From a virus: a DNA stretch of 64,000 bases. The stretch lies in the UHGV virus genome UHGV-2025275; one strand, written 5' to 3'. Below the pieces are notes generated by a model. It did no database searches, was not told the DNA's origin, and saw nothing but the letters and a program-made list of their open reading frames with translations. Made by a program: the position numbers and the translations under genes. Below, piece by piece: positions 1 through 36,433 of this stretch. Position 1 is the first letter of the stretch; the number at the start of each line of letters is the position of its first letter.

Positions 1-660
1 CCCTCCAAGGTCATTACGTATTCTACTAATGCTTCAATCTCGGCCTCAGCCTTTTTGTCGCGTTCGGCTCCGGTCATCTCAAAGATTGAACGGCCCGCCT
101 CTTCGGCATCGTCATAGACGTTGCGGTTGTAAAGGTTCACCGGTGCCGCCTCGATACCGAAGGTTTCGACAATTTCTTTTGCAGCGATAATGCGCGCCGC
201 CTGTGAAGGCAGAGACGGGCATTGGTTCATTACAGCACGGATTTTGATTTTGTCATTCACGCTGCTAACGCTGTCGACAATGGGGTCGATGTCACGCAAG
301 GATTTCAGATCGCGACGTTTCGGGCGAAGCGGGATAAGTATCACGTCAGCCATCAGCATAGCGTGGCGCTGAATTTCGGAGTCGAAACCACCAGCGTCGA
401 CTACGACGTAATCGTAACGGCCACGAAGCGAAGTGATGTGTTTGATGATGTCATCCTGGACGTAGGCGAACGGGATCAGCTCCAACTCTTCATTATGCCG
501 GCGGTCTTCACACCATCCTGTCGTGGTGCGCTGGATGTCGATATCAGTGATCTGGACTTTCTTTTTCTTTTTGATTTTCAGACAGGCTGCAATTTGCTGA
601 GCAACAGTCGATTTGCCTGGGCCACCCTTGGTGCCGCCCACCACAATGATCTGAGTCATT
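1..660 (-). CDS. parA: ParA-like partition ATPase, type Ib (no N-terminal HTH). The C-terminal part runs off the window start.
   Basis: Hand translation of the minus strand from an ATG at 660 gives MTQIIVVGGTKGGPGKSTVAQQ..., with the deviant Walker A KGGxGKS(T). The frame is open to position 1, and an AGGGA-like RBS lies upstream. The + ORF 222..665 in the track is its antisense. Confidence 0.75.
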
Positions 661-694
661 CGTGATATCCCTACGTGTGATTTATCGTCGTATG

Positions 695-726
695 AAACAA
701 CTTGTTTTCTTATATGCGATATAGCC
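695..726 (-). promoter_or_regulatory. Copy of the conserved early-gene upstream element (AAACAACTTGTTTTCTT...GCGATAT on +). It sits just upstream of the parA start.
   Basis: Same motif family as the ten copies at 43496-53778. On the minus strand it reads ...TGCGATAA..., which is extended -10-like, followed by the AAACAAnTTGTTT dyad. Confidence 0.45.
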
Positions 727-856
727 TAAATGCCTACGGCTACGGTGTAAAGGTGAAATGATAGGCAATGCAGGGCGTTAGCTCACAGAGCAAACTAACA
801 GTTGAATGTTTAGCCTATTAGACTTATATTGATTGTACGGAAAAATGCCGTACACA

Positions 857-1010
857 AACCTGAAACTTAGAACCTGAAACTTAGAACCTGAAACTTAGAA
901 CCTGAAACTTAGAACCTGAAACCTAGAACCTGAAACCTAGAACCTGAAACCTAGAACCTGAAACCTAGAAACTGAAACCTAGAAACTGAAACCTAGAAAC
1001 TGAAAACTCG
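857..1010. repeat. 14-bp direct tandem repeat array in three unit variants: GAACCTGAAACTTA x4, GAACCTGAAACCTA x4, GAAACTGAAACCTA x2, plus one degenerate copy. Candidate parC-like centromere/iteron array.
   Basis: Eleven consecutive head-to-tail units are read directly in the sequence. They lie 200-350 bp upstream of the parA start and immediately upstream of tacA. Confidence 0.85.
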
Positions 1011-1058
1011 ACTTTAGAGATGCCTCGCGAGCAAAGGCGTGGGGCTAGGAGTACAAGC

Positions 1059-1328
1059 ATGTCAGCACTGAAAAAACAGCGCATCGATCTCAGATTAACC
1101 GACGACGACAAGAGCATGATCGAAGAAGCTGCGGCAATGACCAACCAGACGATTACTCAGTTTATGGTTGCCAGTGCCTCTGAACGTGCTGCGGAAGTGA
1201 TAGAGCAACATCGCCGATTGATTCTTAGCGAAGAGTCCTGGAATCTGGTAATGAATGCTATCAGCAACCCGCCTGCACCGAATGATAGGCTGAAACGAGC
1301 TGCCAAGCGTCTACAAAGCATGGAGTAA
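1059..1328 (+). CDS. tacA: TacA/KacA/AtaR-like RHH antitoxin (DUF1778 type)
   Basis: 89 aa, MSALKKQRIDLRLTDDDKSMIEEAA... An AGGAG RBS lies 8 nt upstream of the ATG at 1059; the track's 1020 start has no RBS and begins inside the repeats. It is immediately followed by the GNAT toxin gene. Confidence 0.7.
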   Translation: MSALKKQRIDLRLTDDDKSMIEEAAAMTNQTITQFMVASASERAAEVIEQHRRLILSEESWNLVMNAISNPPAPNDRLKRAAKRLQSME

Positions 1329-1331
1329 GAC

Positions 1332-1856
1332 GTGGCCGATCTGACCATAGAGATGTTTTCAGCACAAGCCGTTTACGATTTTTCGGGCTTCGACTGCGGC
1401 GAACCATCTCTGAATGATTTCCTGCAAAACCGCCTGGTACAGCAACACAACGGGCGTATATTACGTGGCTACCTGCTTCTTACCAAAGATCCGGTGCCGA
1501 AAGTTAAGGGTTTTTACACGCTATCCGGGAGCTGTTTTGCAAGACAGACGCTACCATCGAACACCCAGAAGCGGAAAATCCCCTACGCAGATGCACCCAG
1601 CGTTACGCTTGGCCGTCTGGCAATAGATATCAGCCTACAGAAACAAGGCTACGGGGAGGTTCTCGTAACGCACGCGTTGAAGGTTGTTTATCAGGCTTCT
1701 CGCGCAGTAGGCATATACGCTTTGTTTGTGGATGCACTAAACCAAAGCGCAATGCAGTTCTATCAGAAGTTTGGATTCATCCCTTTGACGGGGGCGAATG
1801 CCAACTCGCTTTTCTACCCCACGAAAAGCATTGAAGAGCTGTTTGAAGCAGAGTAA
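1332..1856 (+). CDS. tacT: GNAT-family acetyltransferase toxin (TacT/KacT/AtaT-like)
   Basis: 174 aa with a GTG start 4 nt after the tacA stop and a GGAG RBS. Shows the GNAT motif around QKQGYGEVLV. The small RHH-then-GNAT order matches tRNA-acetylating toxin-antitoxin modules. Confidence 0.7.
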   Translation: MADLTIEMFSAQAVYDFSGFDCGEPSLNDFLQNRLVQQHNGRILRGYLLLTKDPVPKVKGFYTLSGSCFARQTLPSNTQKRKIPYADAPSVTLGRLAIDISLQKQGYGEVLVTHALKVVYQASRAVGIYALFVDALNQSAMQFYQKFGFIPLTGANANSLFYPTKSIEELFEAE

Positions 1857-1861
1857 ACGAA

Positions 1862-1887
1862 GCCCCTCAATCGAGGGGCTTTTTTAA
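1862..1887. terminator. Bidirectional rho-independent terminator between the convergent tacT (+) and o-spanin (-) genes
   Basis: GCCCCTC aatc GAGGGGC followed by TTTTTT on +, and A-run/T-run symmetry. The o-spanin stop codon overlaps the T-run. Confidence 0.8.
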
Positions 1888-2120
1888 TTCAAGGCTTGCC
1901 TGTCCTGCCAGTTGCACAATCGCTCCCCCATCGTGTTATGGAAGAGGATCTCGCGTTCCGTCTCTTCGGTCATACAGTCGTCGTTACTGACATAAATAGG
2001 GTTTGCTGCATCGCAAAACAGCACGCCGGAAGTCTGTGTCTTAATCACGCAGCCACTTATCATGCAGCTCGCGATGAACAGCAGAAGCATCTTTCCGCCG
2101 CACCTCATCAAGTGTTTCAT
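1884..2120 (-). CDS. o-spanin (Rz1-like outer-membrane lipoprotein). It is out of frame with, and overlaps, the 3' end of the i-spanin gene.
   Basis: Internal start MKHLMRCGGKMLLLFIASCMISGC. A signal peptide with an I-S-G-C lipobox is followed by a short mature peptide. Gene overlap with Rz is classic. An alternative start at 2090 is possible. Confidence 0.55.
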   Translation of the reverse strand: MKHLMRCGGKMLLLFIASCMISGCVIKTQTSGVLFCDAANPIYVSNDDCMTEETEREILFHNTMGERLCNWQDRQALN

Positions 2121-2292
2121 TTTTGACGTCCACTGTACTTTGAAGCCTCTTTCTGTCTTCCTGTCGGGCCTTCTCTTCGATTGCTTGCCGAGCCGCACGA
2201 CCTCCCATCGTATAAGCACCGACAAGCACGAAAAGAACGGCAGCCAGAGTCATCAGAGCAAACTTCAGCTTTGAAAATAGGCTGCCGGTCAT
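2041..2292 (-). CDS. i-spanin (Rz-like)
   Basis: 84 aa from the internal ATG at 2292: MTGSLFSKLKFALMTLAAVLFVLVGAYTM, an N-terminal TMD, then a charged coiled-coil region (EEKARQEDRKRLQ...). Located directly after the endolysin stop at 2294. Confidence 0.6.
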   Translation of the reverse strand: MTGSLFSKLKFALMTLAAVLFVLVGAYTMGGRAARQAIEEKARQEDRKRLQSTVDVKNETLDEVRRKDASAVHRELHDKWLRD

Positions 2293-2293
2293 A

Positions 2294-2986
2294 TCAGACC
2301 ATCCCGTTCTGGTGTTTTCGCACCTGTGACCAGGCGATAAAGACAGCCACCACAATGGTCGCGATACCGAAGATGATCCGAACCGTATCACCACTGGTGA
2401 TGTGTCCCTGCGCCTTGTCCATTGCCGCAGAGACCTGTGGCATGACGTCGGCCAGCTGTGCCAGACCAATTCCCGCCGTAACGGTCGCACCGGCAGTCTC
2501 TTTGGTTACAGGAACAGCCTTCACGGTTTTCACCGGCTTAACGACACCAGCGCGACGCAGACCTTCCTCAATAACTTCTGCCGCATACCAGGTATTCGGC
2601 GTTTTGAGCGGGCCACGGCCATTTTCATGACGGATAATCGCCTCAACCAGTGGACGCAGAGTGTCGTAGTCGTGCAGATCGATGATCATGTCCTGGGTGA
2701 CGCCAACGGCTTTAGATACCTCGTTCACGTAAGCCACGGTGTTGTTTTCATGCGGCGGCGCCCAACGCTCGATGACTTCGCGGATCGTATCGATGCTGGA
2801 ACCGTCTTTTGCGCGGCGCTTATCATGGTAGGTGATGAGCGTCACAGTCAGTGCCCGAATCCCCCATACGGGGTCTTTGAAGGTGCAGAAACGCGTCTCT
2901 GCAGGGTTGTTTACTAACCCTTGCCACGGCGAACCTTTATCCAGGTTCCCGGGGTTATTGTTACGAATGCCTCTTGGAGTACCCAT
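2294..2986 (-). CDS. Putative endolysin / peptidoglycan hydrolase, assigned by its position in the S-R-Rz-Rz1 order. It has a C-terminal hydrophobic segment.
   Basis: Start taken at MGTPRGIRNNNPGNL, with an AGGAGA RBS 8 nt upstream. It has a conserved-looking NNPGN motif and a C-terminal stretch IIFGIATIVVAVFIAW. I do not recognise the catalytic family. Confidence 0.4.
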   Translation of the reverse strand: MGTPRGIRNNNPGNLDKGSPWQGLVNNPAETRFCTFKDPVWGIRALTVTLITYHDKRRAKDGSSIDTIREVIERWAPPHENNTVAYVNEVSKAVGVTQDMIIDLHDYDTLRPLVEAIIRHENGRGPLKTPNTWYAAEVIEEGLRRAGVVKPVKTVKAVPVTKETAGATVTAGIGLAQLADVMPQVSAAMDKAQGHITSGDTVRIIFGIATIVVAVFIAWSQVRKHQNGMV

Positions 2987-3002: not shown

Positions 3003-3326
3003 TTATTGCAGTCCATTTTTCACGCCATAAGCGGCCAAACCCAAAAGCAGTACGGTGATCAGGAACGAGGTAATCTTGGAAATAATGCCCCCAAAGAACC
3101 CGCTTGAAATTGTGTCGAGCCGATTAAGAAGTTTGTCCAGGTTGGAATGCTGAATGCTATGTTGCGCCGGAGTCATATCACCAAAGTAAGTTCGCAGTTG
3201 ATCGTTGACCTCCTGACCAATATCGTCGCGAAGCTCCTTACTTAATTTGCCGACGACTTCTCGCGCAACAATTGCGGCAATGCGCTCAACCTGCTCTGGC
3301 GTCACGCCTGCCATCTCGTTTGACAT
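3003..3326 (-). CDS. Holin-like small membrane protein with a single C-terminal TMD
   Basis: 107 aa from MSNEMAG..., with a GGAGG RBS directly upstream. The track ORF begins 4 codons earlier with M-E-E-D-M, giving two in-frame Met codons 4 codons apart. C-terminal ITSFLITVLLLGLAAYGV. It is the first gene of the lysis cassette. Confidence 0.35.
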   Translation of the reverse strand: MSNEMAGVTPEQVERIAAIVAREVVGKLSKELRDDIGQEVNDQLRTYFGDMTPAQHSIQHSNLDKLLNRLDTISSGFFGGIISKITSFLITVLLLGLAAYGVKNGLQ

Positions 3327-4911: not shown

Positions 4912-7900
4912 TTAAGCCAAAGAGATGGAGCCGGTTGTCCTGTACATGGAGATAACCCCTGTAAATCGGAACTGCCCGCTATCGCCACGATTAGGCCACT
5001 GGATCGTGATATTCTGCGTTTGGCCGTAATTTGATGCCGGTATACGAATGGAGAAAATTGAAGTTTCAAAATTTTTACCTTCGTTACCTGAATCAAATGT
5101 CCATACAACTGTTTCATCAACGCGGATTGTTACGTTTTGACGCCAAACCTGCTGAATAATAATAGACCCGTTAAACACCATACGACGCTCAAATGGCATG
5201 CCCTGCACAGTAGCTATAGGATACCGAGTACCTGATGATGTATCGGCTGTAGAAGGCCAGTTTTTAACAACACGGTCGGTCATTGTCACAACATCACCAA
5301 CAATTTTATTAGCTTGCACTGTGCCAAGCACAGTGCAGTTCTCATTAATAGTCACGTTGTTAAGTACGCCAGTATTTGCGTGAACTTCGCCTCTGATATA
5401 TACATTACTGAATCTGGAACGACCATCTTTGTTGATAAACCACGTAGGATATCCATCACTTTCACGACTATCAGAACTAATTTCTTGCGCGATTTTCGCA
5501 TTGGTGATGGAGCCATCCTTAATCACAGCGGCATTCATGTAGGCAACGCCATTTTCCACAACAAATGGTGTGGTAGTGTTTCCGTTAGAGGTATTGATTA
5601 AGCCGAAGCGATCAGCCTGAACCAGAAACTGGCTCTGCAAATTTTTGCCATCGATACCTAAAGCGATACCAGCAGCATACTTTTTACCGTTGCTGTTGGT
5701 TTCCATTTTGACCATCCAGGTGCTATTAACGTTGCCGTTTTCAACAACCGTTTTCTTCAGCTCCTGCAGCTCGGCAGACTGGCCTCCTACCTGGGCCGTT
5801 AAATTCGTTTGCTGCTGAGACAGCGCACTAATCGTTGTGGCCTGAGTCTGCTGAGTTGATTTAATTGCCGCCATCGAAGTGGTGGCGTTATTCAACTCCG
5901 TCTGGTTCTTGATGTTTGCCGATGCCTGCGCATCAATTTGCGACTGCAAGCTGGTATTCAGCGACGACTGCGTTTTCTCGTTGTTGGTGATGGTTTGCGC
6001 CATCTGATCAACCTTCGAAGACGCATCGTTCACCTGGGACGTCAAAGAGGACAGCTGAGACGCCTGGGATGTCACCTGCCCTTCTACATTGGTAACACGT
6101 GAGGTAAGGCTGGTGAGCGCGGATGCGTTCGCATTAGCCGAATCTTTAGCCTCTTTTGCGTCGGTGATATCGGTGACAACAACGTCATCGATATACAGAT
6201 CATACCCCGGTGTACCAGTGCCAGTTGTGCCGCGGGTAGATACCCAAAATGCGCCGCGAGTGTGGCCAGCGGCTACACGGAGCGTACCGGTGAATTTCTT
6301 CCATGCGCCTCTTGCACCCAATGCGGCTTCATTGATAGTGATTGCCGTCGGCCAGTTATTGTTGTTGGCAGCGTTTTGGGTCTGCAAACCAACGAGCGTT
6401 GACCACCCAGAGGATGGCGACTGATCTGCCGGCATCATCGCCCAGAGTTCAATGCGGAATACCGCATTTTCACGCAGAGCAATCCACTTACCGATGGTTT
6501 TATCGCTGTTTCCGCCCTCACCGGCGCCGCGGGAAACACGCAACGACTTCGTTCCGCTTCGTTTCTGAGAGCTGACGACGACCGCACGCGAGCCGCTGAT
6601 CTGCTGGTTTTCGGAGTACGTCTCCAGAGAACCATCAAACCACGGGTTGCTCCCCATCGCCTGAACAGTACTCAAAGAGTTTTTGAACGAAGTTGTCTGG
6701 CTGCTCTGGGTTTCAATTTCTTTCTCGTTCTGCGTGACGCGATTCGTTAATGCCGTTAACGCAGCCGCATCAGCTTTCTTCGAAACATTTGTGTTTGTGG
6801 TAGCAAGGTCATTCTTAAGTTGCGTAACCTGGCTGCCCTGGCTGGTGATGTCATTCTCTGTCTTGGTCACACGACTATCGAGCTTAGTGATCGCGCTCGA
6901 GTTCGCCTGAGTTTCAACAGAGTCGGTCACATCGACGACATAAAAATCATCAAAGTACATCGCGCCGGCTGACAAGAAAGCAGTGAACTGAACGTCAGCA
7001 AGGACATCCTTTGTCGCCTTCCATGTCCAAGACACCTCCTGCCAGTTAGAGGTGAACGGGCCATAAGCCTTACTTGCGATCAGGCCATTACCGTCCGCCA
7101 CACGGAATTTTGTATTGTCGGTCGACTGAATGGTGGTATTAGGGTCCTGCTTTGCCCAAATTCCAATTTTGTACGACCGATCCTTCTTGAAGGAGATCTT
7201 CTGGCCTACGCCTGCAGAACCACCCGCTGCTAGTTTGGCGGCTTTGGTGCCAAGATGTGGAACCTGCAGCGTTGCCACCGTGGCAATACCGCTCCAACCA
7301 GTGTAGCCCTCCGTACCACGCTCAAAAGACGGGTTTACGATCAGGTTACCGGGGATCTGGCTTGCTGCATCCACGCTGGCGTTACTGGACGCAAGGCTGT
7401 TTTCCAGCGCTGTTGTCGAGGAGCTCAGGGAGTCAATATTATCCCCTTGGGTCTTCACTGTATTCTGGAGCGTGGTAATTGCAGATGCGTTCGCATCAGC
7501 CTTCATCATCACACCACCAGCGGCGCCCAGCCCCATCATTACCCCGTTCACAAACTCGACTGAGGTCGAAATGTGGGCGGTGCCGTCGCCACCGGTTGGC
7601 GCACGCAGTTCCAGACCATCGCCCGGCTTCATACCTTTGCGGCCAAGGAGAATGTAGGCGCCACGATACGGCAGAGAGTTAACGACTTCGGAAGTGCCAC
7701 CAAGAGATTCCAGGGCAGACAACACCTTACCTCGGTTGCCAGTTGGCTCATCGAATGTCAGGACGCAAACGTAAGTCCCACTGGCCAGTGCCTCGATATC
7801 AGCCGACATCGTGGCGCCATTATTCGCGCTGCCAAAGACATCGTATGTTTTGGAGGTCGCAATCACCGTTGATCCGTCGCTGTGTTTTGCAAAAGTGACC

Positions 7901-10900
7901 AGCGCCCAGCTGCGACCAGGAGTAAACAGGTTCTTGCCGCTTTCATCAAACACCCCATGGGTAACGCTATTGCCATTACCCCGTGCGGTTACAGTAAACA
8001 CAGTGCGACGGTTCATCGAGGCCTGCAGGCTGGTAATGCTGCTGTTCGCTGCGGTTAAATCGTCACCCTGAGATGTCACCGTGTTCCGGAGATCCTGCAA
8101 TGCTGAAGCATCAGCTTTCTTGGCAATGTTGTTCTGAGCTGTCGACAGCCCGTTTTCCAGCGATGTGGTGCGATTACCGATAGAGCTTATGGAAGTGCCC
8201 TGCTGATTCACTGTCGTTGTCAACAAGTCCACAGCCGACGCGCTGGCGCTATCAGCCGGAGAGTCGTTCCAGTCGGAAACAACGTTACCTACCTCAAACT
8301 TCGGGCTGTTGATGTACACCGTCTGGTCTTTGGAGGTATTGCTCTCGATACGGCACAGAATCAGGCGCTTGGTGCCCGTGGTAGGTGTCTGTTTCCACTT
8401 AACCCAGTAGCGGGCCCATGAAGTGGTCAGCGTGAACTGCGCACGGCCATCACTGTTGTTACCCTTCGCACCCTGGCTGGTCTCGATAGACGTTGTAGTG
8501 TTCGGATTGTAGAAGAACGCCGTCATAATCTGGCCAGCAACACCGCCTTTCGCATAGAAGCTGTAAACGTACTCACCTGCATCGACCGGCGACTCAAGCG
8601 TGATTTCCCGCAAATCCCTGTAACCGGAGCCGGCTTTTACAGTTGCGCCAATTACCGCGTTACCACGATACGTGTCGCTGGTAACGTTCAACCAGCCGGT
8701 CATATCGCCAGAGTTCTTAATCAGGTTTGTACCGCCAACAGAAATGGCATCAACCTTGTTGTTCAGATTCGTGACAGAAGAACTCGTTGAGTTAATGTCT
8801 TTTTCGGTCTGGGTAACACGGTTGGTCAGTGCCGTCAGAGCATTGGCGTCCGCTTTTTGAGCAACGTTTGCATTTGTTGTTCTCAAATTATTCTCAAGAT
8901 TGGTAGTACGTGTACCAATGCTGGAGATATTCTCCCCCTGCTGATTTACCGTAGAGGTCAGCGAATCAACCGCTTTCGCCGTAGCATCGAGAGAATCCTG
9001 AACTTTGGAGGAGTCGGTTACGTTCCGCAGATGCCAGTCGGTCACATACCAGACGGTGCCGAACGGGCTGGACTGGTTGATTTGCAGGAATGGACGGAAG
9101 AAACCGCGATCGACAATTCCCTGATTAATTTTGAAACGCCAGGTTACTCGCTGCCATGTGGCCGACGCCTTGCGGTTGCCGCCAGATGACAGAGGCGCGC
9201 CCACGCTGCCGCTTGGCCGTGTTGCGGTTCCGAGATACAGGTTGAAATCAGCGGAGCCGGTGCCACACGCGACGAGAGCAGACATTTCATAGACATCCCC
9301 CAATGTCGCCGGAATAGCAGCAAAATTTGGGTGATGGTCGCGAGCCGCAATGCGTGCAACATAAGCGTATGGGCAATTGGCTGGCACGCCCTCAGACGAG
9401 CTGGAAACCACAGTGAAGCCCATCTGACTAAACTCTGGGTCAAATGTCGGGTTGCTAATCAAATCGCCACTTGTCGCATTCCCTGCGCGTACAGATGAAT
9501 TAAGCGCAGTGATACTGCTATTCGCGGAGGATAAGCCCGACTCTGTTTGATCGACGCGCCCGGACAACACGCTTAAAGCGCTCTGATCCGCTTTTTTACT
9601 GACGTTGTTATTGGTCGTTGCCAGGTCATTTGTCAGTTTGGTGATGCTGTTACCCTGACTGGTGATCTGGTCACCCTGTTGGGAGACGGTCGAGTCCAGT
9701 GTCGAAATCGCATTGGCGTTAGCATCTGCTGTACTTTGCGCATTGTAGGCATCAGTTACTTCGGTAATGACCAGGTCATCAATAAGGAATGAGTTTCCCG
9801 CCTTAACGCTGCTAACGTTAGGAATAGAAATCCTCACCATTGCCTGCTTAATACCGCTCTTCGTTGATTTCAGGTAACCAGAAACCTTCGTCCATTGAGC
9901 TGTAGACAGATCTTTCGCCGCTTTGGTTACTGCTGGCCACTGCCAGGAGTTGTCCTGATACTGGAGCGACAAGCCAATGGAGATCTGCGCATTCTCGGCC
10001 ATAGCGGTGCTCTTGGCATCCAGCTTAACCCAGCATTCCATATAGAAGACTGCGTTATCGCGAACCTGGAACCCGCTGAAAATGTGATTATCGCTGTTAT
10101 CAGTTGCGTTAGCGTTGTAATCATTCGGACGCGTCACACGGATGCACTTACTACCGCCATGCGAGTCATCAGTGGTCACGATAACGCGATTATTTGATAG
10201 ATTATGGCCAACCGCGTAGCTTTCAAAAGTGCCATCAGGAAGCAGATTGGCGCCGCGTTTGGATTGCTGGTTCAGAGAGCTGCTGAGCGACGTAATGTTG
10301 CTGTTCGCCGCCGTCAGACCGGACTCCGTCTTCTCTACCCGACCTGTCAGCGTAGTGACTGCCGACTGATCGGCCTTTTTCGCGATGTTTGCGTCAGCGA
10401 CTTCGAGGTCATTGGTCAACTTAGTGATGCTGTTGCCCTGACTGGTGATCTTGTCACCCTGCTGCGTCACCGTGCTCGACAACGTAGACAGCGCATCGCT
10501 ATTAGCCTTGATCTTCACCTCATCCGTGATATCAAAGACCTTAAAGGTATCAACCCAGATTTCGGCATTAGCCGGGTGCGCGTAAAGCTTAAAGTTCTGA
10601 CCATCAGCGTTAGAGGCAGTAAGCCCAGTCTCCCAGGTAATGGTCTGCCACTCACTGGTGAGTGTGACGTTTTTATCTTCATAATTGCTGTCGGTCTGGC
10701 CGATTTTATTCTGGCGCCGGATCAACATGTTCATCGCCCCGGACACGCCCTTGGCTTTAACCACAACACGATATTTGCGCTGACCATTAAGCGGCAGCGG
10801 CTTGTTGTTGTTGGAGAAGATGCCTGGGCTGGTCGTGGTCGTCCGGTTCAGCTTAACCCCAGCCTTACCATCACCGAAGTTGCCGAAAGCGACGCCCGCC

Positions 10901-13900
10901 GGATACTGGATATCCCAAGCAGTTGCACCCTGCAGGAAATCGTAGTTCGGGATCAGGTTGTCACCGGCGTTTCTGGCAGCGGTCAGGGTATTATTCAGGT
11001 TCGTGATGCTGTTACCCTGGCTGGAAATCGTATCCCCCTGCTTGGAGACCGTATTTTGCAGCGTAGACAGCGCCTGTGCATCTGCCTTATTCGCCAGATT
11101 AGCGTTGGTCTGTTCGAGGCTGTTTCGCAGATCAGTAACGCTCTGCGAGGTGCTCGTGACGCGATCACCTACGGTGCTGACGTTTGAGGTGACGGCGCTA
11201 ATGGCATTCGAAAGCGCGTTCATCCCAAGAGCAGAATTCAGCTGGGCTACTTTCTCGGACAGTTTAAAACCGAGGTTAATGTAAGCCTGACCAGTCCATT
11301 GGTTCACCAGGAACTCAACCGTGCTCCAGCCAGCTTTCAGATCAAAGCTAACCGTATTCCAGCTCGCATTACCAAAGGCAGCCCTAACACCGTTCACGTA
11401 CACGGCGCCCGTATCATCAAAAACACGAGCCCCTGGTGCCATAGTGATGGTGGTATCAGCATTGACCTTCACGAAGGCTTTGTAATGCGCGATCACGTAA
11501 CTGCCGGCGCTCGCAAAGTCCAGTTTTGCAGCGTCAGGAACCTCCTCGATCGAGGTTGGCGCCTTACCGTTGATATCGCTAAAGGTCGGCTCAATAGTGC
11601 TGTTTGCCAGTTGTACGTTGTATACGCTACGCACCCACATGTTCTGGCGGCCGTTAACTATCTGGTTTGACAGCGAAGTGATGCTGTTGGAGTTAGACGT
11701 AATGTCTTTTCCCTGCTGGGTCACGGTACTGTTGAGGGTTGATAACGCATTGGACGTCGCATCAATCGCCTTCTCATTGCTCACGTCAACGCAGAAGACG
11801 TCATCGAGATACATATAGCCGGAAGCGACACTTGCGCGCAGAGACACAACCACGCTCGCGGTTTTGGCTGGCGTATACTCGCCGCTAATAAGCGCCCAGT
11901 TAGTCGACAGCCCGGCGCCAGTGATCGGGATATCCTTTATCGGCGTCAGATCTGCGTTTCGAAGGCTAATTTTGTTGTTGCCGGCATTATTGATCGCGAA
12001 GTCAGCGGATTTGCGAACCCATGCGCCGATACGATAAGTCTTGCCGGCCTGCAGCTCGACCGTTTGGTTGCAGCCCGAGTCACCGCCAGAGGCCAGTTTG
12101 CCCGCCTGGATGATGTATTTACCCGATTTGGGGTTCTGGGCCTCCAACAGAGTCCAGCCGACATACTCCCAACCTTCGAAACCACGTTCAAAAGAGTTGT
12201 TTTTGAGCATGTTGCCGATGATCGCTTTCGAGGCATCCGCATCAGCATTGGCGTTATCCAGCGAGTTTGACAGGCTGGTGATGCTCTGGGACTGGCTGGA
12301 GATCTGATTTTCGGCAGCAGTTACGCGGTTTGTCAGATTAGTCACAGCTGAGGCGTCAGCTTTGTTCTTGATGCTGTTCTGCATCGAAGTGATCTGCTGC
12401 CCCTGGCTGGTGATGGTGCCCTCAACAGACGATACCCGAGAGGTCAAAGCATTGGTGGCACTGGCGTTCGCCTCAATCGCCAGAGCATCAGTGACGTCAA
12501 CAAAACCAACATCATCGAAGTACTGAGAACCGGTTTTGAGAGAAGACATGATCGATACGTCAACTTTACCGGTCAGCGTCGCCTTCCAGGTATCAGAGAC
12601 CTCCTTCCATGTTTCATCTTTGGGCAGATTCTCCGGACGGATCGGAATCTCTTTGAGCAACGTGGCCGCGCCAATACGCAGTTTGTTGTTGCCAGGGCTG
12701 CTGATCACCGCATCAGTGGTACACCGCACAAAAGAGGACAGCTTGTATGTCCGCCCTTCGACGACGCTTACAGATTGCGTGATTTGCACCGTGCCGGCGG
12801 CGCAAACAAGAATTTTGCTACCAGAATGGGGCGCACTCGCCTTGATAACACTGGATACGCTGTTCCCTGCAGACCACCCTGCCAGGTCACGCTCAAAGGA
12901 GGCGTTAACCAGCAAATTGCTCGGGTTGCTTTTGGCAGTATCGGTATCGCTCTGGATATCGCTCAGCGAGTTATTCAGGGTGGTGATGCTTTCACTCTGG
13001 CTGCTAAGGGTTTTATCCTGCTGGGTTACGGTCGACTGCAGACCCGTGATCGCCTTGCTATTCGCAGATACACCAGACTCAACACTTCCTACGCGATTGT
13101 CCAGCGTAGACAATGCCGCACCTTGTGATTTAAGGGTGTTGCCCTGCTCTTCAACCTTCTGGGAAATTGTCTGTACTGCACTGGCATCGGCCTTCTGGCC
13201 AAGGCTTGTTTGCAACCCGGTAATCTTGCTTGCCTGGGAAGCTTGTTCAGTGGACAGCGTATGCAGCTCTTCTGCAACAGAGGCTTTGTTTCTGTTGAAT
13301 TCAGTCTGCAGGGATTCACGCGCACTCGCTTCCGCAGCATCGGCAGTGATACGAGCATTTTTCTCCTGATAGATCAGACCGGAGCGAATGTCGTCCAGAT
13401 TTCCGCTTTCAGATGAACCGCGGATTTGTGCAGCCAATGTGCTGCGCGCCTGCGCTTCGGCGGTATCTGCATTCGCACGAGCCTGCTGCTCTTCCTGTAA
13501 CGCGGCCATGCCTGCGCCCGGCGTCGGTCGACCAACGGCGATCCAGTCGAATAACAGGTAATTGTCCGCATCCTGACCCGAAGTGAAATCGAAGCGGAAA
13601 CGACGAATCGTTGTCGAATCCCGCCACTCAATGTCGTGCAGGGTCAGAATCGCAATACCCTTGTCGTCGTATTCCGGCTCATTGATAACCACGGAGCGAC
13701 CAGCATTCCAGCCAGTTTCATCAGCGCCGATCCAGAACATTCTGGCGTTCCAGGTTGGGTTGCCAACCTTTTTAACGCGCATCTTAATGAAACGATAAGC
13801 ATGGGCATCGATCGTCAATCCGTTAGGGGAACGACAGGTTGAGGTCGGATTGTTCGCTTTCAGCCAGCCATCGCTGGTGACGCTCATTGGCGTGTAGCCA

Positions 13901-16900
13901 TTATCATCTTCCGTCCAGCCTTCGGCGTCCTGGTCGAAATACCAGATTTTCAGAGAGTCAAACTGTTCCCCTGTGCCAGCGGCAATCTGCGAGATCTGTC
14001 GCGCGAGGTTTTCGTCACCGGAGGTCACAACCTCAGACAAGCTATCGATAGAGGTTTTCAGCTCATTCTTCGCGCTCAGCAGTTGGTCGGCCGCTTGCTT
14101 GGCTGCATCATTAACATCTGCAATACGGTCATTCGTCTCTTTCTGAATGGCCGCAGTCAGATCTTTGCTGGTCTGGGACAGCGACGTTGTCAGTGATGAC
14201 TGCGCATTCTTAATCTCCTGCGACAGAGCAGCGTCGCCGTCTTTAATCGACTGTTTTGCAGCTTCAATTTGGCTGTTTACGTTGGAGATGTTGGTATTGA
14301 TCGTCTGGTTGACCGTATCGATATTGTCGACAATTGTCTGATTGACGGTATCAATGTCCTCTTTCAGCGACTGATTGACAGAGTCAACCTGCGCCTTAAT
14401 TTCGGAGGAGGTTTGCGCAAGGTCGTTTTCAACTTGCTGAATAGACTCGTTGACTGAGTTCTGAACCTCGCCAATGGCGTTGTCTACCGCCTCCTGAGTG
14501 GCTTTGCTGTCGATTTCGTCGAGCAGCTCTTTGCCGAGTTCAGAAGATGTGATCTTGTCTTTCAGGAAAGACAATACGTCGCGAGTGGTGGCCTCTGTAC
14601 CGAGGTTCGAGTTCGGCTGGCCTACCATCCCACGTTTGTTTACCGCACGAATCCAGTAATACCAGGTCTCGTTGTCACCCAGCCCAGCGTGAGTGAAAGT
14701 CGTTGTGGCGGCCTGAGCAATGAGTGTCGCGGTGTCCAGCTTATTTGTTTTGGACGCATACACGTTGATCTGCGCGAGGTCGACTGAATCAGGGTTAACC
14801 CAATTCAATACCACGTTACGATAATCCCCCACCGCGGTCAGTGATGTGGGCGCCCCTGGCGGCGTCATCGTGCCTTTTACCTGATAGACAGCAGTAATAA
14901 TCTCGGATTTTTTGCCGCCGAAGGAAACGGAATACAGCTGGAAGTCATATCGCCCATTTTCGGCAACATTGACGATTTCATATTGTTCTTCCGTGGCGCG
15001 GGCAGATTGCCAGTTGGAGACGTTGCCCTCGTCGGAGCGGCGCCAGCTGACCCAGTATTCTGGTGATTTACCTTCCCAGGCAAGCATCAGCTTCACGGAC
15101 AAGTTGCCCGGACTGGACAGATAGGTGCCTTCTGAGATGACCAGATTGCTCGGTTTGGAATATGTGGGATCAAGAACCGTCGTATTTTCTGGAACGAGCG
15201 CGGCCCCGTTATCAATCGCCTGGTACTTAGATGCATTGTTCTGCACCACCGTGATATCAAACGACCCCGGGGTTTCACCTTGCGCGATAGCGACAACGCG
15301 CGCCCGCATTGGAACCAGGTCTGGTTCGGTGATCGTCCAGACGCCATTCGCTACTGGTTGATCGGCTGTGGCCAACGCCGTCTTGAAGGTAACTTTAGTG
15401 ATGTTGTCGCCGGTCTCGTTGATGTCTCGCTCAACGATTTTGCCTTCCTGATTGATGATACGGATGAAGCTACCGCTCTTTTTCAGAGAGACAGGTGCAT
15501 CGAGGGTGATGCTGTTTTTGGTGAAAGAGACAATGCGACCGGAATTGCGTTTGCCGGCACGATATTTGTTCTGGATCAGAACGGTTTCGCCCGGCATCAG
15601 GAACGAGGCGTCTAGGCCCGCGGTAAAGGTGATCATGTCTGACTCCATACGCGCGGTATAGAGCAGCCACAAACCTACACGATGAGCCTGACCACGGCTG
15701 GTGCATCCGAACGCAACGGCCTCGGTCTTGCGCTCCCCGTATCGGGCCATCGCTTCCTGATCTTCAACATACTCAACGTTCTGCTTATAGCCGTCTTGTT
15801 TGTTGTTATAAGTGATCAGCGCTACGGACGGCCGGTCTTTTCGAGCAGAGCCTTTATAGGTAAACAGGCCATCTTTTACGTTTGCGTTGGTAAACAGCAT
15901 GACAGGATCAGACGGGCTGTCCTGCATGATATTCACCATGCCACCAGCCCAGAAAACCATGCCACGGAAAGCACCGGCAATATCCTGAATCAGACGATAA
16001 GCGTCCTGACGACTGGTGATCTGGGTGTTGATTGCAAAGCGTTTTTCTTTGCCGCCAAAGCCATCATCAACCTCTTCGTCGCAGTAGCGACCGATCTGAT
16101 AAAGCTGGCCAAGGTCAATCATTGACTCCGAAACAAATTTGCCGAGGCCATAACGAGCATTGGTCAGCAGATCGAACAGAATCCAGGCAGGGTTGGAAGA
16201 CGACAGAAGTTTAAAGGTTCCATCCCAAACGCCGTTATAAGTGTTCGTGTTTTCATCATAATTCGAAGGCACACGGATTTTGAGGCCACGGATAAGATAC
16301 GAACGTGACGGCATAGAGCTACCAAACTGCTCAGAGTTAACCTTAAGGCCAACCAGAACGGAGTTCGGGTAGTTCATTGGGGTGTCAACGATCTCACCGA
16401 TAGAGTCGACCCAGGTATCGTTAAAGAGATACTGATCGTTGCTGTCGGCGGAGAGACGAAGCACGCGCACTTTATAGGCACGCCCAGGCTTTGGAAGCTG
16501 GATTTCGTAACTGCGGTAGTAGACACCAGTCTTTTTCGCAGTCAGCGTCACGTCAGAGCTGCTCTCACCTGCAGCAATCACGTCATAGAAAGAGCCATTG
16601 CCGTTGGCCAGCTGGAACTTAAACTGGACCGAAGTACCGTTTGTGTCCCCTGTTTTCTTGTCAATGTTCCGCAGCGACGGGAACTTCATGATCACTCGGA
16701 CACGATCAGCGTCGTCGTTATCGATGGCGACCGTAACCGCATTTGTGGTTTTCAGCTGTGTGTTAACGGCCTTTGGCGTTTCGACAAAATCGAAACCAGG
16801 CATCGGGCTTTGGTCTTGCGAACCATCCCGGAAATCCCAAGTTACACCGGAACGGTTGAATGAACCGTCTTCGTTCTGTAGCGCCACACCATCGACGAAG

Positions 16901-17091
16901 ATAGATTTAGCACCGTCAATCAACCCACCAACAACACCTTCCCCGAGCAGATCGAGGATAGACGCCATGGTGCGAGAATTAACGGTATCATCCGCTTCAA
17001 CTGGTGTACGGCTTGAGCCTGAGCTCTTTTTGCCGCCCGCTCCCGCAATCAGGAGGGGCAATCTCTTTTTCTTGAACTGATCCATGTTCAA
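4912..17091 (-). CDS. J: Giant central tail fiber / host-specificity protein, lambda gpJ homolog, 4059 aa
   Basis: Roughly the first 1000 aa and last 270 aa align convincingly to lambda J from memory (e.g. SVLVGLKVNSEQFGS, YNGVWDGTFK, CTSRGQAHRVGLWLL, and the C-terminal ANKIVGDVV... block). The middle roughly 2700 aa consists of about 9 tandem modules of a coiled-coil stalk (TLxSTVTQQGDxITSQGNSITxLxNxL) plus a roughly 150-aa beta-sandwich domain with N-x-x-F-E-x-G-W ... YxDDVxVxDVTD signatures. Confidence 0.9.
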   Translation of the reverse strand: MNMDQFKKKRLPLLIAGAGGKKSSGSSRTPVEADDTVNSRTMASILDLLGEGVVGGLIDGAKSIFVDGVALQNEDGSFNRSGVTWDFRDGSQDQSPMPGFDFVETPKAVNTQLKTTNAVTVAIDNDDADRVRVIMKFPSLRNIDKKTGDTNGTSVQFKFQLANGNGSFYDVIAAGESSSDVTLTAKKTGVYYRSYEIQLPKPGRAYKVRVLRLSADSNDQYLFNDTWVDSIGEIVDTPMNYPNSVLVGLKVNSEQFGSSMPSRSYLIRGLKIRVPSNYDENTNTYNGVWDGTFKLLSSSNPAWILFDLLTNARYGLGKFVSESMIDLGQLYQIGRYCDEEVDDGFGGKEKRFAINTQITSRQDAYRLIQDIAGAFRGMVFWAGGMVNIMQDSPSDPVMLFTNANVKDGLFTYKGSARKDRPSVALITYNNKQDGYKQNVEYVEDQEAMARYGERKTEAVAFGCTSRGQAHRVGLWLLYTARMESDMITFTAGLDASFLMPGETVLIQNKYRAGKRNSGRIVSFTKNSITLDAPVSLKKSGSFIRIINQEGKIVERDINETGDNITKVTFKTALATADQPVANGVWTITEPDLVPMRARVVAIAQGETPGSFDITVVQNNASKYQAIDNGAALVPENTTVLDPTYSKPSNLVISEGTYLSSPGNLSVKLMLAWEGKSPEYWVSWRRSDEGNVSNWQSARATEEQYEIVNVAENGRYDFQLYSVSFGGKKSEIITAVYQVKGTMTPPGAPTSLTAVGDYRNVVLNWVNPDSVDLAQINVYASKTNKLDTATLIAQAATTTFTHAGLGDNETWYYWIRAVNKRGMVGQPNSNLGTEATTRDVLSFLKDKITSSELGKELLDEIDSKATQEAVDNAIGEVQNSVNESIQQVENDLAQTSSEIKAQVDSVNQSLKEDIDTVNQTIVDNIDTVNQTINTNISNVNSQIEAAKQSIKDGDAALSQEIKNAQSSLTTSLSQTSKDLTAAIQKETNDRIADVNDAAKQAADQLLSAKNELKTSIDSLSEVVTSGDENLARQISQIAAGTGEQFDSLKIWYFDQDAEGWTEDDNGYTPMSVTSDGWLKANNPTSTCRSPNGLTIDAHAYRFIKMRVKKVGNPTWNARMFWIGADETGWNAGRSVVINEPEYDDKGIAILTLHDIEWRDSTTIRRFRFDFTSGQDADNYLLFDWIAVGRPTPGAGMAALQEEQQARANADTAEAQARSTLAAQIRGSSESGNLDDIRSGLIYQEKNARITADAAEASARESLQTEFNRNKASVAEELHTLSTEQASQASKITGLQTSLGQKADASAVQTISQKVEEQGNTLKSQGAALSTLDNRVGSVESGVSANSKAITGLQSTVTQQDKTLSSQSESITTLNNSLSDIQSDTDTAKSNPSNLLVNASFERDLAGWSAGNSVSSVIKASAPHSGSKILVCAAGTVQITQSVSVVEGRTYKLSSFVRCTTDAVISSPGNNKLRIGAATLLKEIPIRPENLPKDETWKEVSDTWKATLTGKVDVSIMSSLKTGSQYFDDVGFVDVTDALAIEANASATNALTSRVSSVEGTITSQGQQITSMQNSIKNKADASAVTNLTNRVTAAENQISSQSQSITSLSNSLDNANADADASKAIIGNMLKNNSFERGFEGWEYVGWTLLEAQNPKSGKYIIQAGKLASGGDSGCNQTVELQAGKTYRIGAWVRKSADFAINNAGNNKISLRNADLTPIKDIPITGAGLSTNWALISGEYTPAKTASVVVSLRASVASGYMYLDDVFCVDVSNEKAIDATSNALSTLNSTVTQQGKDITSNSNSITSLSNQIVNGRQNMWVRSVYNVQLANSTIEPTFSDINGKAPTSIEEVPDAAKLDFASAGSYVIAHYKAFVKVNADTTITMAPGARVFDDTGAVYVNGVRAAFGNASWNTVSFDLKAGWSTVEFLVNQWTGQAYINLGFKLSEKVAQLNSALGMNALSNAISAVTSNVSTVGDRVTSTSQSVTDLRNSLEQTNANLANKADAQALSTLQNTVSKQGDTISSQGNSITNLNNTLTAARNAGDNLIPNYDFLQGATAWDIQYPAGVAFGNFGDGKAGVKLNRTTTTSPGIFSNNNKPLPLNGQRKYRVVVKAKGVSGAMNMLIRRQNKIGQTDSNYEDKNVTLTSEWQTITWETGLTASNADGQNFKLYAHPANAEIWVDTFKVFDITDEVKIKANSDALSTLSSTVTQQGDKITSQGNSITKLTNDLEVADANIAKKADQSAVTTLTGRVEKTESGLTAANSNITSLSSSLNQQSKRGANLLPDGTFESYAVGHNLSNNRVIVTTDDSHGGSKCIRVTRPNDYNANATDNSDNHIFSGFQVRDNAVFYMECWVKLDAKSTAMAENAQISIGLSLQYQDNSWQWPAVTKAAKDLSTAQWTKVSGYLKSTKSGIKQAMVRISIPNVSSVKAGNSFLIDDLVITEVTDAYNAQSTADANANAISTLDSTVSQQGDQITSQGNSITKLTNDLATTNNNVSKKADQSALSVLSGRVDQTESGLSSANSSITALNSSVRAGNATSGDLISNPTFDPEFSQMGFTVVSSSSEGVPANCPYAYVARIAARDHHPNFAAIPATLGDVYEMSALVACGTGSADFNLYLGTATRPSGSVGAPLSSGGNRKASATWQRVTWRFKINQGIVDRGFFRPFLQINQSSPFGTVWYVTDWHLRNVTDSSKVQDSLDATAKAVDSLTSTVNQQGENISSIGTRTTNLENNLRTTNANVAQKADANALTALTNRVTQTEKDINSTSSSVTNLNNKVDAISVGGTNLIKNSGDMTGWLNVTSDTYRGNAVIGATVKAGSGYRDLREITLESPVDAGEYVYSFYAKGGVAGQIMTAFFYNPNTTTSIETSQGAKGNNSDGRAQFTLTTSWARYWVKWKQTPTTGTKRLILCRIESNTSKDQTVYINSPKFEVGNVVSDWNDSPADSASASAVDLLTTTVNQQGTSISSIGNRTTSLENGLSTAQNNIAKKADASALQDLRNTVTSQGDDLTAANSSITSLQASMNRRTVFTVTARGNGNSVTHGVFDESGKNLFTPGRSWALVTFAKHSDGSTVIATSKTYDVFGSANNGATMSADIEALASGTYVCVLTFDEPTGNRGKVLSALESLGGTSEVVNSLPYRGAYILLGRKGMKPGDGLELRAPTGGDGTAHISTSVEFVNGVMMGLGAAGGVMMKADANASAITTLQNTVKTQGDNIDSLSSSTTALENSLASSNASVDAASQIPGNLIVNPSFERGTEGYTGWSGIATVATLQVPHLGTKAAKLAAGGSAGVGQKISFKKDRSYKIGIWAKQDPNTTIQSTDNTKFRVADGNGLIASKAYGPFTSNWQEVSWTWKATKDVLADVQFTAFLSAGAMYFDDFYVVDVTDSVETQANSSAITKLDSRVTKTENDITSQGSQVTQLKNDLATTNTNVSKKADAAALTALTNRVTQNEKEIETQSSQTTSFKNSLSTVQAMGSNPWFDGSLETYSENQQISGSRAVVVSSQKRSGTKSLRVSRGAGEGGNSDKTIGKWIALRENAVFRIELWAMMPADQSPSSGWSTLVGLQTQNAANNNNWPTAITINEAALGARGAWKKFTGTLRVAAGHTRGAFWVSTRGTTGTGTPGYDLYIDDVVVTDITDAKEAKDSANANASALTSLTSRVTNVEGQVTSQASQLSSLTSQVNDASSKVDQMAQTITNNEKTQSSLNTSLQSQIDAQASANIKNQTELNNATTSMAAIKSTQQTQATTISALSQQQTNLTAQVGGQSAELQELKKTVVENGNVNSTWMVKMETNSNGKKYAAGIALGIDGKNLQSQFLVQADRFGLINTSNGNTTTPFVVENGVAYMNAAVIKDGSITNAKIAQEISSDSRESDGYPTWFINKDGRSRFSNVYIRGEVHANTGVLNNVTINENCTVLGTVQANKIVGDVVTMTDRVVKNWPSTADTSSGTRYPIATVQGMPFERRMVFNGSIIIQQVWRQNVTIRVDETVVWTFDSGNEGKNFETSIFSIRIPASNYGQTQNITIQWPNRGDSGQFRFTGVISMYRTTGSISLA

Positions 17092-35551: not shown

Positions 35552-35802
35552 CTGCGCTCGATATTGGCATTGATGAAGTCCAGGCGAAGCGATTCTATCG
35601 CCCCAACCATGACGTATGGGCGCCCACCGTTATGCCAGCAATCCAGAACACTCTCGTCGTTATTGATCATCAGCAGCGCCAGGCTCTGGCTTTTGCCTTC
35701 TCTGGCGTACTGGAGTGCATCTTCCAGCAGGCGGATGACTTCAACGTTATTGTTGTCAGTCTCTTTCGATGGCTTCAGCTCTACGATCTTCAAATCAGGC
35801 AT
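35548..35802 (-). CDS. Hypothetical protein
   Basis: 84-aa ORF, translationally coupled to both neighbours. Confidence 0.4.
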   Translation of the reverse strand: MPDLKIVELKPSKETDNNNVEVIRLLEDALQYAREGKSQSLALLMINNDESVLDCWHNGGRPYVMVGAIESLRLDFINANIERR

Positions 35803-36433
35803 ATTCCACCTTCACGCGTTCTTTGTAGTGCTTGGTGATCTGCATATCCGGGCGCAGCGCGTTCTTCAGGTCTTCGTGGGTCGTCGCCACCATTACCGTC
35901 GCACCTACCTTTCGCGCGGCACGCTGGAGGTTCGACGCCACAACCTGGGCGGTAACACGATCAAGAACTGCGCCAAATTCATCCGCAGCCCATACCTTTG
36001 CGCCCGACTCAATAAGCTTGGCGATCTTGAGCCGGTATTTCTGGCCATCCGACATTTCAGAAGGTTTGCGCACAAAGAGATAGGCATCATTCAAGCCAGC
36101 CATCGAAAGCAGCCCTAACGCTTCGCTGGTGGTTTTACCCAGCTGGTCGATGACATTGACGTCGTTGTCAAAGGTAAAGTCATCAATGGAGGCGACTGAA
36201 AGCCCTTCCTCTTTCATCTGGCGTTGTAGCTCACGCAGCACGACAGATTTTCCGGAACCTGACTGGCCAGTGATGTAAACCACATCACCCTGCTCAACTT
36301 CCAGCTCAAGATTGTCGTAAAGTGTCCAGTCTTTTTCATCCAGGCCAAGCCCAAACGATTCGGCGATCTCAAGCGTGCGAGTAGTCTTGTTGACACGGGT
36401 CTGGAACGATACGTTGATGGTATATGTGCTCAT
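35795..36433 (-). CDS. Small stand-alone ABC-type ATPase
   Basis: Walker A GQSGSGKS, signature-like MSDGQKYR, Walker B VWAADEFGAVLD, H-loop ATTHE; 212 aa. Confidence 0.65.
   Translation of the reverse strand: MSTYTINVSFQTRVNKTTRTLEIAESFGLGLDEKDWTLYDNLELEVEQGDVVYITGQSGSGKSVVLRELQRQMKEEGLSVASIDDFTFDNDVNVIDQLGKTTSEALGLLSMAGLNDAYLFVRKPSEMSDGQKYRLKIAKLIESGAKVWAADEFGAVLDRVTAQVVASNLQRAARKVGATVMVATTHEDLKNALRPDMQITKHYKERVKVEYA

Follow-up and report, generated by a model that had tools for sequence, protein, structure and literature searches.

The first 1,887 nucleotides of a 64-kb stretch (64,000 nucleotides, hereafter the window) of the viral genome UHGV-2025275 hold a partition gene, parA, an array of 14-bp tandem repeats, and a toxin–antitoxin pair directly beside phage lysis genes, and thereby raise two questions: what kind of element the window comes from, and what the array does in it. 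Taken as a whole, our best explanation, which we regard as likely, is that the 64 kb of the window derive from an SSU5-like phage-plasmid and that positions 1–1887 are its known plasmid-maintenance corner, comprising a partition ATPase gene and a KacAT toxin–antitoxin cassette. The element would be a siphovirus maintained in the cell as a circular plasmid of low copy number, and its maintenance corner would consist of two independent, divergently transcribed modules, the par operon and the kacAT cargo. Judging from its position and its distribution among relatives, the array is a variable-number tandem repeat in the 5′ leader of kacAT, and neither a centromere nor a set of iterons.

Over its first 3.4 kb, the window is 99.1% identical to p3_SCLZS62 of Raoultella planticola (NZ_CP082171.1), a circular, non-mobilizable IncFIB plasmid of 116 kb. 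Local BLAST comparison revealed that all 64 kb are collinear with this plasmid at approximately 98–99% identity, in a run that leads from parA through the lysis, tail, head, and terminase genes to the early region, and that the insertion sequence (IS) elements of NZ_CP082171.1 are missing from the window. The plasmid itself encodes terminase, portal, capsid, tape-measure, and lysis genes. An earlier note on this DNA had proposed an extrachromosomal prophage of the SSU5/pHCM2 kind and suggested a BLAST comparison with plasmids and phage-plasmids. This comparison, performed with the first 3.4 kb from parA to the lysis genes, returned 713 plasmid records, most of them of ~110 kb and from Klebsiella, Escherichia, Enterobacter, Salmonella, and Citrobacter (691 of the 713 being non-mobilizable), as well as 12 phage records, including SSU5 at 83.5% identity across parA and the lysis genes. 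The relatives that were fetched and inspected are complete circular plasmid records, all IncFIB-typed except the one from Cronobacter, and no chromosomal flank was found over the 64-kb window. The proposal of the earlier note is borne out by the plasmid collinearity, the number of plasmid records, and the match to SSU5.

SSU5-type elements constitute an established supergroup of phage-plasmids (SSU5_pHCM2, pKpn, pSLy3, and pMT1; Pfeifer et al., 2021, PMC7969092). A relative of the window, Cyrano, is a virion-producing plasmid present at 5.5 copies per cell, and in Cyrano lysogens kacT, the antitoxin gene, and the adaptor gene that follows parA were transcribed 35-, 60-, and 9-fold above local background, respectively (PMC9928086). 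The phage-plasmid identity is already known, the SSU5 supergroup being large and well described and near-identical plasmids being public. The group shares the gene order tail, holin, endolysin, spanins, parA, adaptor, DUF2971, DnaB helicase, and primase, together with an IncFIB-type RepA with iterons elsewhere in the element, and SSU5 itself also shares the conserved block and the palindrome upstream of parA. In contrast, two unrelated genes, SSU5_031/032, occupy in SSU5 the slot in which the window has the kacAT cassette and its repeat-bearing leader; the same slot is empty in the pKpn-type element L158, where only a terminator lies between the spanin gene and the par promoter; and in pMT1 the ParA/adaptor pair is replaced by a P7-like type Ia ParAB.

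The kacAT cassette (1.1 kb, ~767–1886) would have been inserted into this variable slot between parA and the lysis genes as a unit in which a sigma-70 promoter with a KacA operator across the transcription start is followed by a long leader, the genes kacA and kacT, and a terminator. It is carried by only 76 of the 713 related plasmids. The slot holds a gene pair of the SSU5_031/032 type in SSU5, p4727, and L161, a 185-aa gene in pJN2-26, kacAT in the window, and kacAT plus a restriction endonuclease gene in Buttiauxella. Neither Pfam nor PADLOC gave matches for the non-kacAT cargo of the slot, and PADLOC searches with KacA, KacT, SSU5_031/032, and pJN2-26_0081 gave none. The parts of the cassette, from the promoter to the toxin gene, are located as follows.

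802–830, plus strand: sigma-70-like kacAT promoter, TTGAAT-17-TATATT, pointing to kacA and away from parA
834–854: KacA-type operator, TGTACGG-AAAAATG-CCGTACA, a perfect palindrome that begins 3 nt past the −10 hexamer; sole exact copy in the window
857–1005, plus strand: 14-bp array, 10.6 copies, 98% matches, score 249 (Tandem Repeats Finder)
1022–1045, plus strand: predicted stem-loop just ahead of AGGAG (1047–1051), the kacA Shine-Dalgarno sequence
1059–1328, plus strand: kacA, DUF1778/ribbon-helix-helix (RHH) antitoxin of 89 aa (Pfam TacA1, E 3e-26)
1332–1856, plus strand: kacT, GNAT toxin of 174 aa with a GTG start and GNAT Pfam matches

The earlier note described the pair as a TacAT-like RHH–GNAT module; the module type and the TacA1 match stand, but the closest solved relative is KacAT and not Salmonella TacAT. 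Among structures in PDB, the antitoxin is best matched by KacA (5zgn_A, E 8e-44) and the toxin by KacT (5zgn_C, E 3e-67), both of K. pneumoniae, with AtaR/AtaT as the next solved pair. The residues R8, D10, and R12, which contact DNA in KacA (PMC6698736), are identical in the antitoxin, and the toxin has a Tyr at the position of KacT Y145. The pair thus shares its sequence matches and key residues with KacAT (K. pneumoniae, 5ZGN) and AtaRT (E. coli O157, 6AJM/6GTS), and on these similarities we concluded that it is a KacAT orthologue; it has its own promoter. The half-sites TGTACGG/CCGTACA and the 7-nt spacer of the operator are the same as in the duplex crystallized with KacA4KacT2, AAATGTACGGTTATTAACCGTACATGA, which is described as spanning the kacAT transcription start (PMC6698736); from this match we infer that KacA binds at 834–854. 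The position of the operator right after the −10 hexamer is also shared with KacAT, the promoter and the palindrome are kept in every kacAT-carrying relative examined, and the promoter–operator layout recurs at L070, a chromosomal kacAT locus of Klebsiella, with a 20-nt gap between operator and start. Read in this way, positions 802–854 are the autoregulated promoter of the cassette itself, and neither a phage promoter nor part of the par locus.

A scan with a 14-base operator pattern over one genome per species yielded at least 120 loci, approximately three-quarters of which are chance matches in unrelated GC-rich genomes; among the loci listed, a DUF1778 homologue (24–84% identity, many phyla) lies 4–73 nt downstream in 30 of 120. 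By this comparison, the KacA operator is unusually conserved across phyla. Also among the loci listed, the operator precedes DUF1778 antitoxins of only 24–50% identity in Acidobacteriota, Actinomycetota, Collinsella, Mesorhizobium, and others (e.g., L070, L112, L017, L054, and L037). By homology with KacAT and AtaRT, KacT would arrest growth via the acetylation of aminoacyl-tRNA (PMC6698736), whereas KacA would neutralize KacT and repress the operon. Loss of the plasmid would then free the toxin, amounting to addiction, and a defense role for kacAT is possible as well.

The 14-bp array is the sole tandem repeat with a score of at least 60 in the 64 kb. It is composed of four units a (CCTGAAACTTAGAA), four units b (CCTGAAACCTAGAA), two units c (ACTGAAACCTAGAA), and a partial unit, in agreement with the eleven 14-bp repeats counted previously. 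The array begins 2 nt past the KacA operator and ends 53 nt ahead of the kacA start codon. Because it is located between the operator and the kacA start, it is assigned to the kacAT leader, where it would extend from roughly +20 to +170 of the transcript. The resulting leader is what distinguishes the locus from KacAT and AtaRT: the operator-to-start distance is 204 nt, most of it variable tandem array, compared to 4–73 nt at 30 other kacA loci among those listed. Two other uses of the array were ruled out, namely additional KacA sites, as there is no GTACGG half-site within it, and coding sequence, as every frame on either strand is interrupted by stop codons.

Among the kacAT-carrying relatives, the leader varies from one lineage to the next. 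It has 14-bp units in Klebsiella and Raoultella, eleven copies of the 7-bp unit GAAAACT in one Enterobacter type, and four 12-bp units in Buttiauxella, whereas the leaders of Cronobacter and Cyrano have no clear array and Citrobacter and Enterobacter plasmids with a 97%-identical toxin–antitoxin cassette have a 222-nt non-repetitive AT-rich leader instead. Even elements with identical KacA and KacT have 8.6, 10.6, 10.6, 13.6, 14.6, and 19.6 units, and the order of unit variants is different in each. Only two viral contigs contain the 14-mer pattern, in each case upstream of kacA, and the 14-bp unit has no other occurrence in the plasmid. A viral-contig scan for four copies of GAAAACT gave 20 matches, mostly in unrelated contigs; L144 and L146, which were checked, are SSU5-like kacAT loci. 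Elements that keep ParA and the adaptor but have no array comprise SSU5, pJN2-26, p4727, Cyrano, and L158, and in SSU5, pJN2-26, and p4727 the parA gene, the adaptor gene, and the parA-proximal non-coding block are retained with other cargo in the slot.

In the reading that we prefer, the array would be a slippage-prone repeat that forms a long, A-rich, unstructured, and untranslated leader. It would most likely have no dedicated binding protein, and any effect on kacAT expression would be exerted via leader length or RNA stability. All of the long leaders have stops in all frames and an A- or AT-rich composition, and their folds are less stable than those of their own shuffles; C exceeds G in the leaders of the 14- and 12-bp lineages, a skew that is not common to all lineages. 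A hairpin equivalent to that at 1022–1045 precedes the Shine-Dalgarno sequence in seven of seven enterobacterial kacA leaders, with sequences that differ between lineages; one of the seven is the short leader of a chromosomal Kosakonia locus. Covariation of this hairpin was not confirmed by RNAalifold run on a non-structural MAFFT alignment of the divergent leaders.

The second module, the par operon, would comprise parA and a gene for a 118-aa adaptor, transcribed from a promoter within a conserved 81-nt block. Its features in the window are the following.

659 to 1, minus strand: parA, residues 1–219 of 221; the stop and the last two codons (7 nt) lie just beyond the window
686–766: conserved non-coding block of 81 nt, carrying the putative parA promoter and a palindrome
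695–707: palindrome of 13 bp, AAACAA-C-TTGTTT, located past the putative parA promoter and ahead of the parA start
709–736, minus strand: putative parA promoter, −35 TAGGCA (736→731), 16-nt spacer, −10 TATAAG (714→709), read by eye

ParA is a protein of 221 aa with a deviant Walker A motif, KGGPGKST, at residues 11–18, in which the N-terminal DNA-binding extension is absent. It matches AAA_31, MipZ, CbiA, and ParA of Pfam over the cut-off and PHROG 164 (ParA-like) with E 2e-50; its match to ParA_partition of NCBIfam (E 1e-35, 123 bits) is under the 180-bit equivalog cut-off. The best solved relative is ParF of TP228 (4dzz, E 4e-12, residues 8–215). Since ParF is the best solved relative, the N-terminal extension is absent, and the Walker A motif is deviant, ParA is classified here as a small ParF-like type Ib partition ATPase, and the type assigned in the earlier note is upheld by its size, Walker motif, and 4dzz match.

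The candidate partner of ParA is the adaptor, whose gene directly follows parA just outside the window; a 118-aa gene takes this place in all relatives compared, and the parA–adaptor order is kept in three divergent groups. The adaptor family is small, with 29 clusters, every one of them annotated as hypothetical and located on SSU5-like contigs. A disordered basic N-terminal tail with an invariant RxPxRPQGRPTRGK motif is followed by a helical core (AF2 monomer model, pLDDT 69). Across seven close relatives, which include carriers of all three array types and array-less elements, the adaptor is 90–99% identical and residues 22–117 are almost invariant, whereas identity across the three groups that keep a CATAAG–palindrome junction is only 51–62%. 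The locus resembles ParF–ParG–parH of TP228 in that ParF is the best full-length match to its small Walker ATPase among solved structures, in that the next gene encodes a small protein whose basic N-terminal tail is flexible, and in that non-coding DNA upstream of the ATPase gene is conserved. It differs from TP228 in that the adaptor has no detectable sequence or fold similarity to ParG and in that a parH-like repeat set is not demonstrated, the sole nearby tandem array belonging to the toxin–antitoxin operon. Two proteins with a ParB_N domain are encoded elsewhere in the window (36430–37802, minus strand), in a cluster with an ABC-type ATPase (35795–37802) that lies beside the terminase genes and is kept in pMT1; they are unlikely partners of a type Ib ParA.

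The block at 686–766 is 90–99% identical across relatives, compared to 77–80% for the parA coding sequence, and apart from the palindrome it is unique in the plasmid. Because this non-coding sequence is more constrained than the parA gene itself, conservation argues that it must carry cis functions. The parA promoter was placed in it by eye, at a position where the promoter-scan tool gave no call; the sequence CATAAG/TATAAG next to the palindrome is kept before parA in three divergent groups. By analogy with TP228, in which parH lies upstream of parF, the block is the best candidate for the centromere and operator of the adaptor. No paper on the centromere of pHCM2 or SSU5 was found in the literature.

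The 13-bp palindrome in this block is kept before parA in SSU5, Cyrano, pJN2-26, L158, and L161, and it belongs to a family dispersed over the window. The exact form AAACA-N3-TGTTT occurs 11 times against 0.02 expected (the parA site and 10 others), and looser matches with up to 3 mismatches occur 17 times against 0.82 expected. The exact copies start at the following positions.

695, 34243, 43496, 44039, 44946, 45531, 46709, 47563, 52039, 52762, 53761: AAACA-N3-TGTTT

Most of the other copies precede minus-strand genes at 34–54 kb, with a sigma-70-like promoter on one side, the Shine-Dalgarno sequence on the other, and a common flank, TTGCGATAATAACACCAACAAG. The genes behind them are mostly small unknowns and include one for a DUF4942 protein and one for a Rha-like protein; positions 52849–53691 encode a Rha-like regulatory protein. 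In the full plasmid, copies are also found before the DnaB-helicase gene and near the integrase/regulator locus. The earlier note had placed parA under a phage early-promoter element, and the palindrome behind the parA promoter is indeed common to 10 further sites in the window; at the level of sequence, the link of parA to an operator-like element found throughout the family stands. The pMT1 plasmid of Y. pestis has neither a ParA nor an adaptor homologue, yet it contains four palindromes, identically flanked, where 0.08 are expected. Since pMT1 keeps the palindromes without the adaptor, their binder is probably another protein. For the same reason, it is unlikely that the adaptor is a global regulator acting on the palindromes, like omega or KorB, or that the palindromes form a dispersed centromere, as in N15. 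It is conceivable, though unlikely, that partition and many phage genes share one regulon via the palindrome, under a regulator other than the adaptor. A literature search found no relevant paper for the palindrome or the array sequences.

Short tandem repeats upstream of parA are typical of type Ib systems, as in parH of TP228 and parC of pB171, and arrays of 7-bp heptads are bound by RHH centromere-binding proteins, e.g., omega of pSM19035. The earlier note accordingly took the array for a parC-like centromere and operator, which would be the assembly site for the ParA partner. The location of the array in the parA–kacA intergenic region, the construction of its 14-bp unit from 7-bp half-units, and the presence of its core GAAAC in the parA-proximal palindrome as well would suit such a role, but the comparative pattern makes it improbable. 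The outward-facing kacAT promoter and operator separate the array from parA, so that it lies downstream of both on the far side; it is found only together with kacAT; and SSU5, pJN2-26, p4727, Cyrano, Cronobacter, and the pKpn-type relatives keep ParA and the adaptor without it. Because the adaptor is near-invariant while the array has units of 14, 7, or 12 bp or gives way to unique sequence, the arrays do not behave as its co-evolving centromere. The iteron label used in the same note would make the array part of the plasmid replicon, either as replication iterons or as an incompatibility locus, and it is compatible with repeats that are tandem, direct, and non-coding. We nevertheless consider this extremely unlikely, as repA of the near-identical plasmid NZ_CP082171.1, approximately 34 kb away, is flanked on both sides by at least 20 unrelated repeats of 19–21 bp, CTACTCACTACAGTGGATA (region L009 32900–35100), the 14-bp unit occurs nowhere else in the plasmid, and the array is missing from most family members. 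The CTACTCACTACAGTGGATA repeats, whose layout around repA resembles the incC and incA arrays of P1- and F-type replicons, are the real iterons of the replicon. A further alternative, in which the prophage is integrated by way of an integrase-family gene elsewhere in the genome and its par locus is a relic, concerns the element as a whole. Searches by tblastn found no homologues of integrase, RepA, or recombinase within the 64-kb window, and to that extent the absence of an integrase claimed in the earlier note is correct; it does not extend to NZ_CP082171.1, which has a tyrosine "site-specific integrase" gene beside a regulator outside the region corresponding to the window. The remainder of this plasmid also holds the post-parA gene, DnaB helicase, primase, ligase, dnaE, a recombinase, and repA with its iterons, so that both a repA and a candidate ParA partner, which the earlier note advised looking for just beyond the window, are present; for none of these genes does the window contain a homologue. 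A "site-specific integrase" is annotated in pMT1 too. Nonetheless, we give the relic next to no weight: the inspected relatives are circular plasmid records with 713 plasmid matches behind them, the window has no chromosomal flank, ParA and the adaptor, both intact, are subject to strong purifying selection, and Cyrano has been measured as a multicopy plasmid. In P1, a tyrosine recombinase serves dimer resolution, and the integrase-family gene is most simply explained as a resolution or regulatory recombinase, like Cre.

It is conceivable, though rather doubtful, that the array instead acts as a sequence-specific platform in the kacAT leader, at which CTGAAAC/UGAAAC would recruit a protein or a small RNA or would provide an entry site for Rho or RNase E, tuning KacAT to the state of the plasmid or phage. 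Several of the observations that favor such a platform weigh at the same time against neutral slippage. Three lineages have independent arrays of 14-, 7-, and 12-bp units at the same position, all built on a related core, CTGAAA(A)C, and the sister leader without repeats contains four copies of TGAAAT in 222 nt against ~0.2 expected by a rough composition-based estimate; the common core hints at a selected motif. That every leader is long, A/U-rich, and less structured than its shuffles, with C exceeding G in two lineages and a hairpin ahead of the Shine-Dalgarno sequence, would also be in keeping with a platform. However, near-identical elements differ freely in copy number and in the order of units, Cronobacter and Cyrano have leaders without a clear array, the C/G skew is not found in all lineages, the motif enrichment was spotted post hoc, and no candidate binder was identified. 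A broader version, in which repeat-bearing leaders are a selected platform with the motif (C/T)TGAAA(C/T), acting as DNA or RNA to recruit a host or phage factor and tuned by copy number, and in which parA and phage genes form a regulon on the palindrome, appears unlikely. If true, it would couple the expression of an addiction or defense toxin to the plasmid or lytic state and tune it by rapid changes in copy number. Other points also tell against our preferred explanation of the locus as an SSU5-type maintenance corner with a slippage-prone kacAT leader. The kacAT transcription start is a putative one, taken from the precedent of K. pneumoniae kacAT, and the 81-nt block is a candidate centromere on grounds of conservation and analogy. 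The RHH fold of the adaptor is a hint from a sub-threshold match (aCcr1, E 2e-4, below the cut-off), and searches with the adaptor in Pfam, by sequence and profile against PDB, and by Foldseek against PDB (E <= 0.001) gave no match. Finally, the window alone cannot prove that this particular element is extrachromosomal.

On the other side of the cassette, kacT converges on the lysis genes, which are arranged as follows.

1859–1882: GC-rich terminator hairpin between the convergent kacT and o-spanin genes, with a T-run on the plus strand
1884–2048, minus strand: o-spanin (PHROGs)
2041–2292, minus strand: i-spanin (PHROGs)
2294–2986, minus strand: endolysin (PHROGs)
3003–3326, minus strand: gene in the holin position, matching only an unannotated PHROG; named holin in SSU5

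The o-spanin stop (1884–1886) lies 27 nt past the kacT stop, close to the 30 bp given in the earlier note for the distance between the maintenance genes and the o-spanin stop. The shared bidirectional terminator described there is present as a hairpin with a T-run on the plus strand; on the minus strand, on which the tool also called a terminator, the tail CGTTTACTCT is weaker and T-poor, and this part of the description holds less well. Elsewhere in the window, a single open reading frame of 4059 aa (4912–17091, minus strand) encodes a tail protein with many internally repeated modules, compared to which the tail-fibre protein of SSU5, at ~1260 aa, is several times shorter. A GmrSD-like type IV restriction enzyme of 560 aa (54901–56583, minus strand; GmrSD_N E 1e-35, GmrSD_C E 3e-15) is a defense gene on the phage-plasmid. 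Just outside the window, two genes past parA, a DUF2971 protein (L001 6852–7586) matches the PADLOC candidate defense system PDC-S31 with E 6.5e-37.

The maintenance corner illustrates that a reader with only the sequence in hand can recognize a phage-plasmid, and also that a tandem array beside parA should not automatically be labelled a centromere or iteron. The real centromere of the SSU5 family most likely lies within the 81-nt block, whose conservation exceeds that of parA. These plasmids are clinically common, and the variable repeat could be used to type them at a fine scale; the interval between parA and the lysis genes emerges as a cargo site at which the modules differ between relatives.

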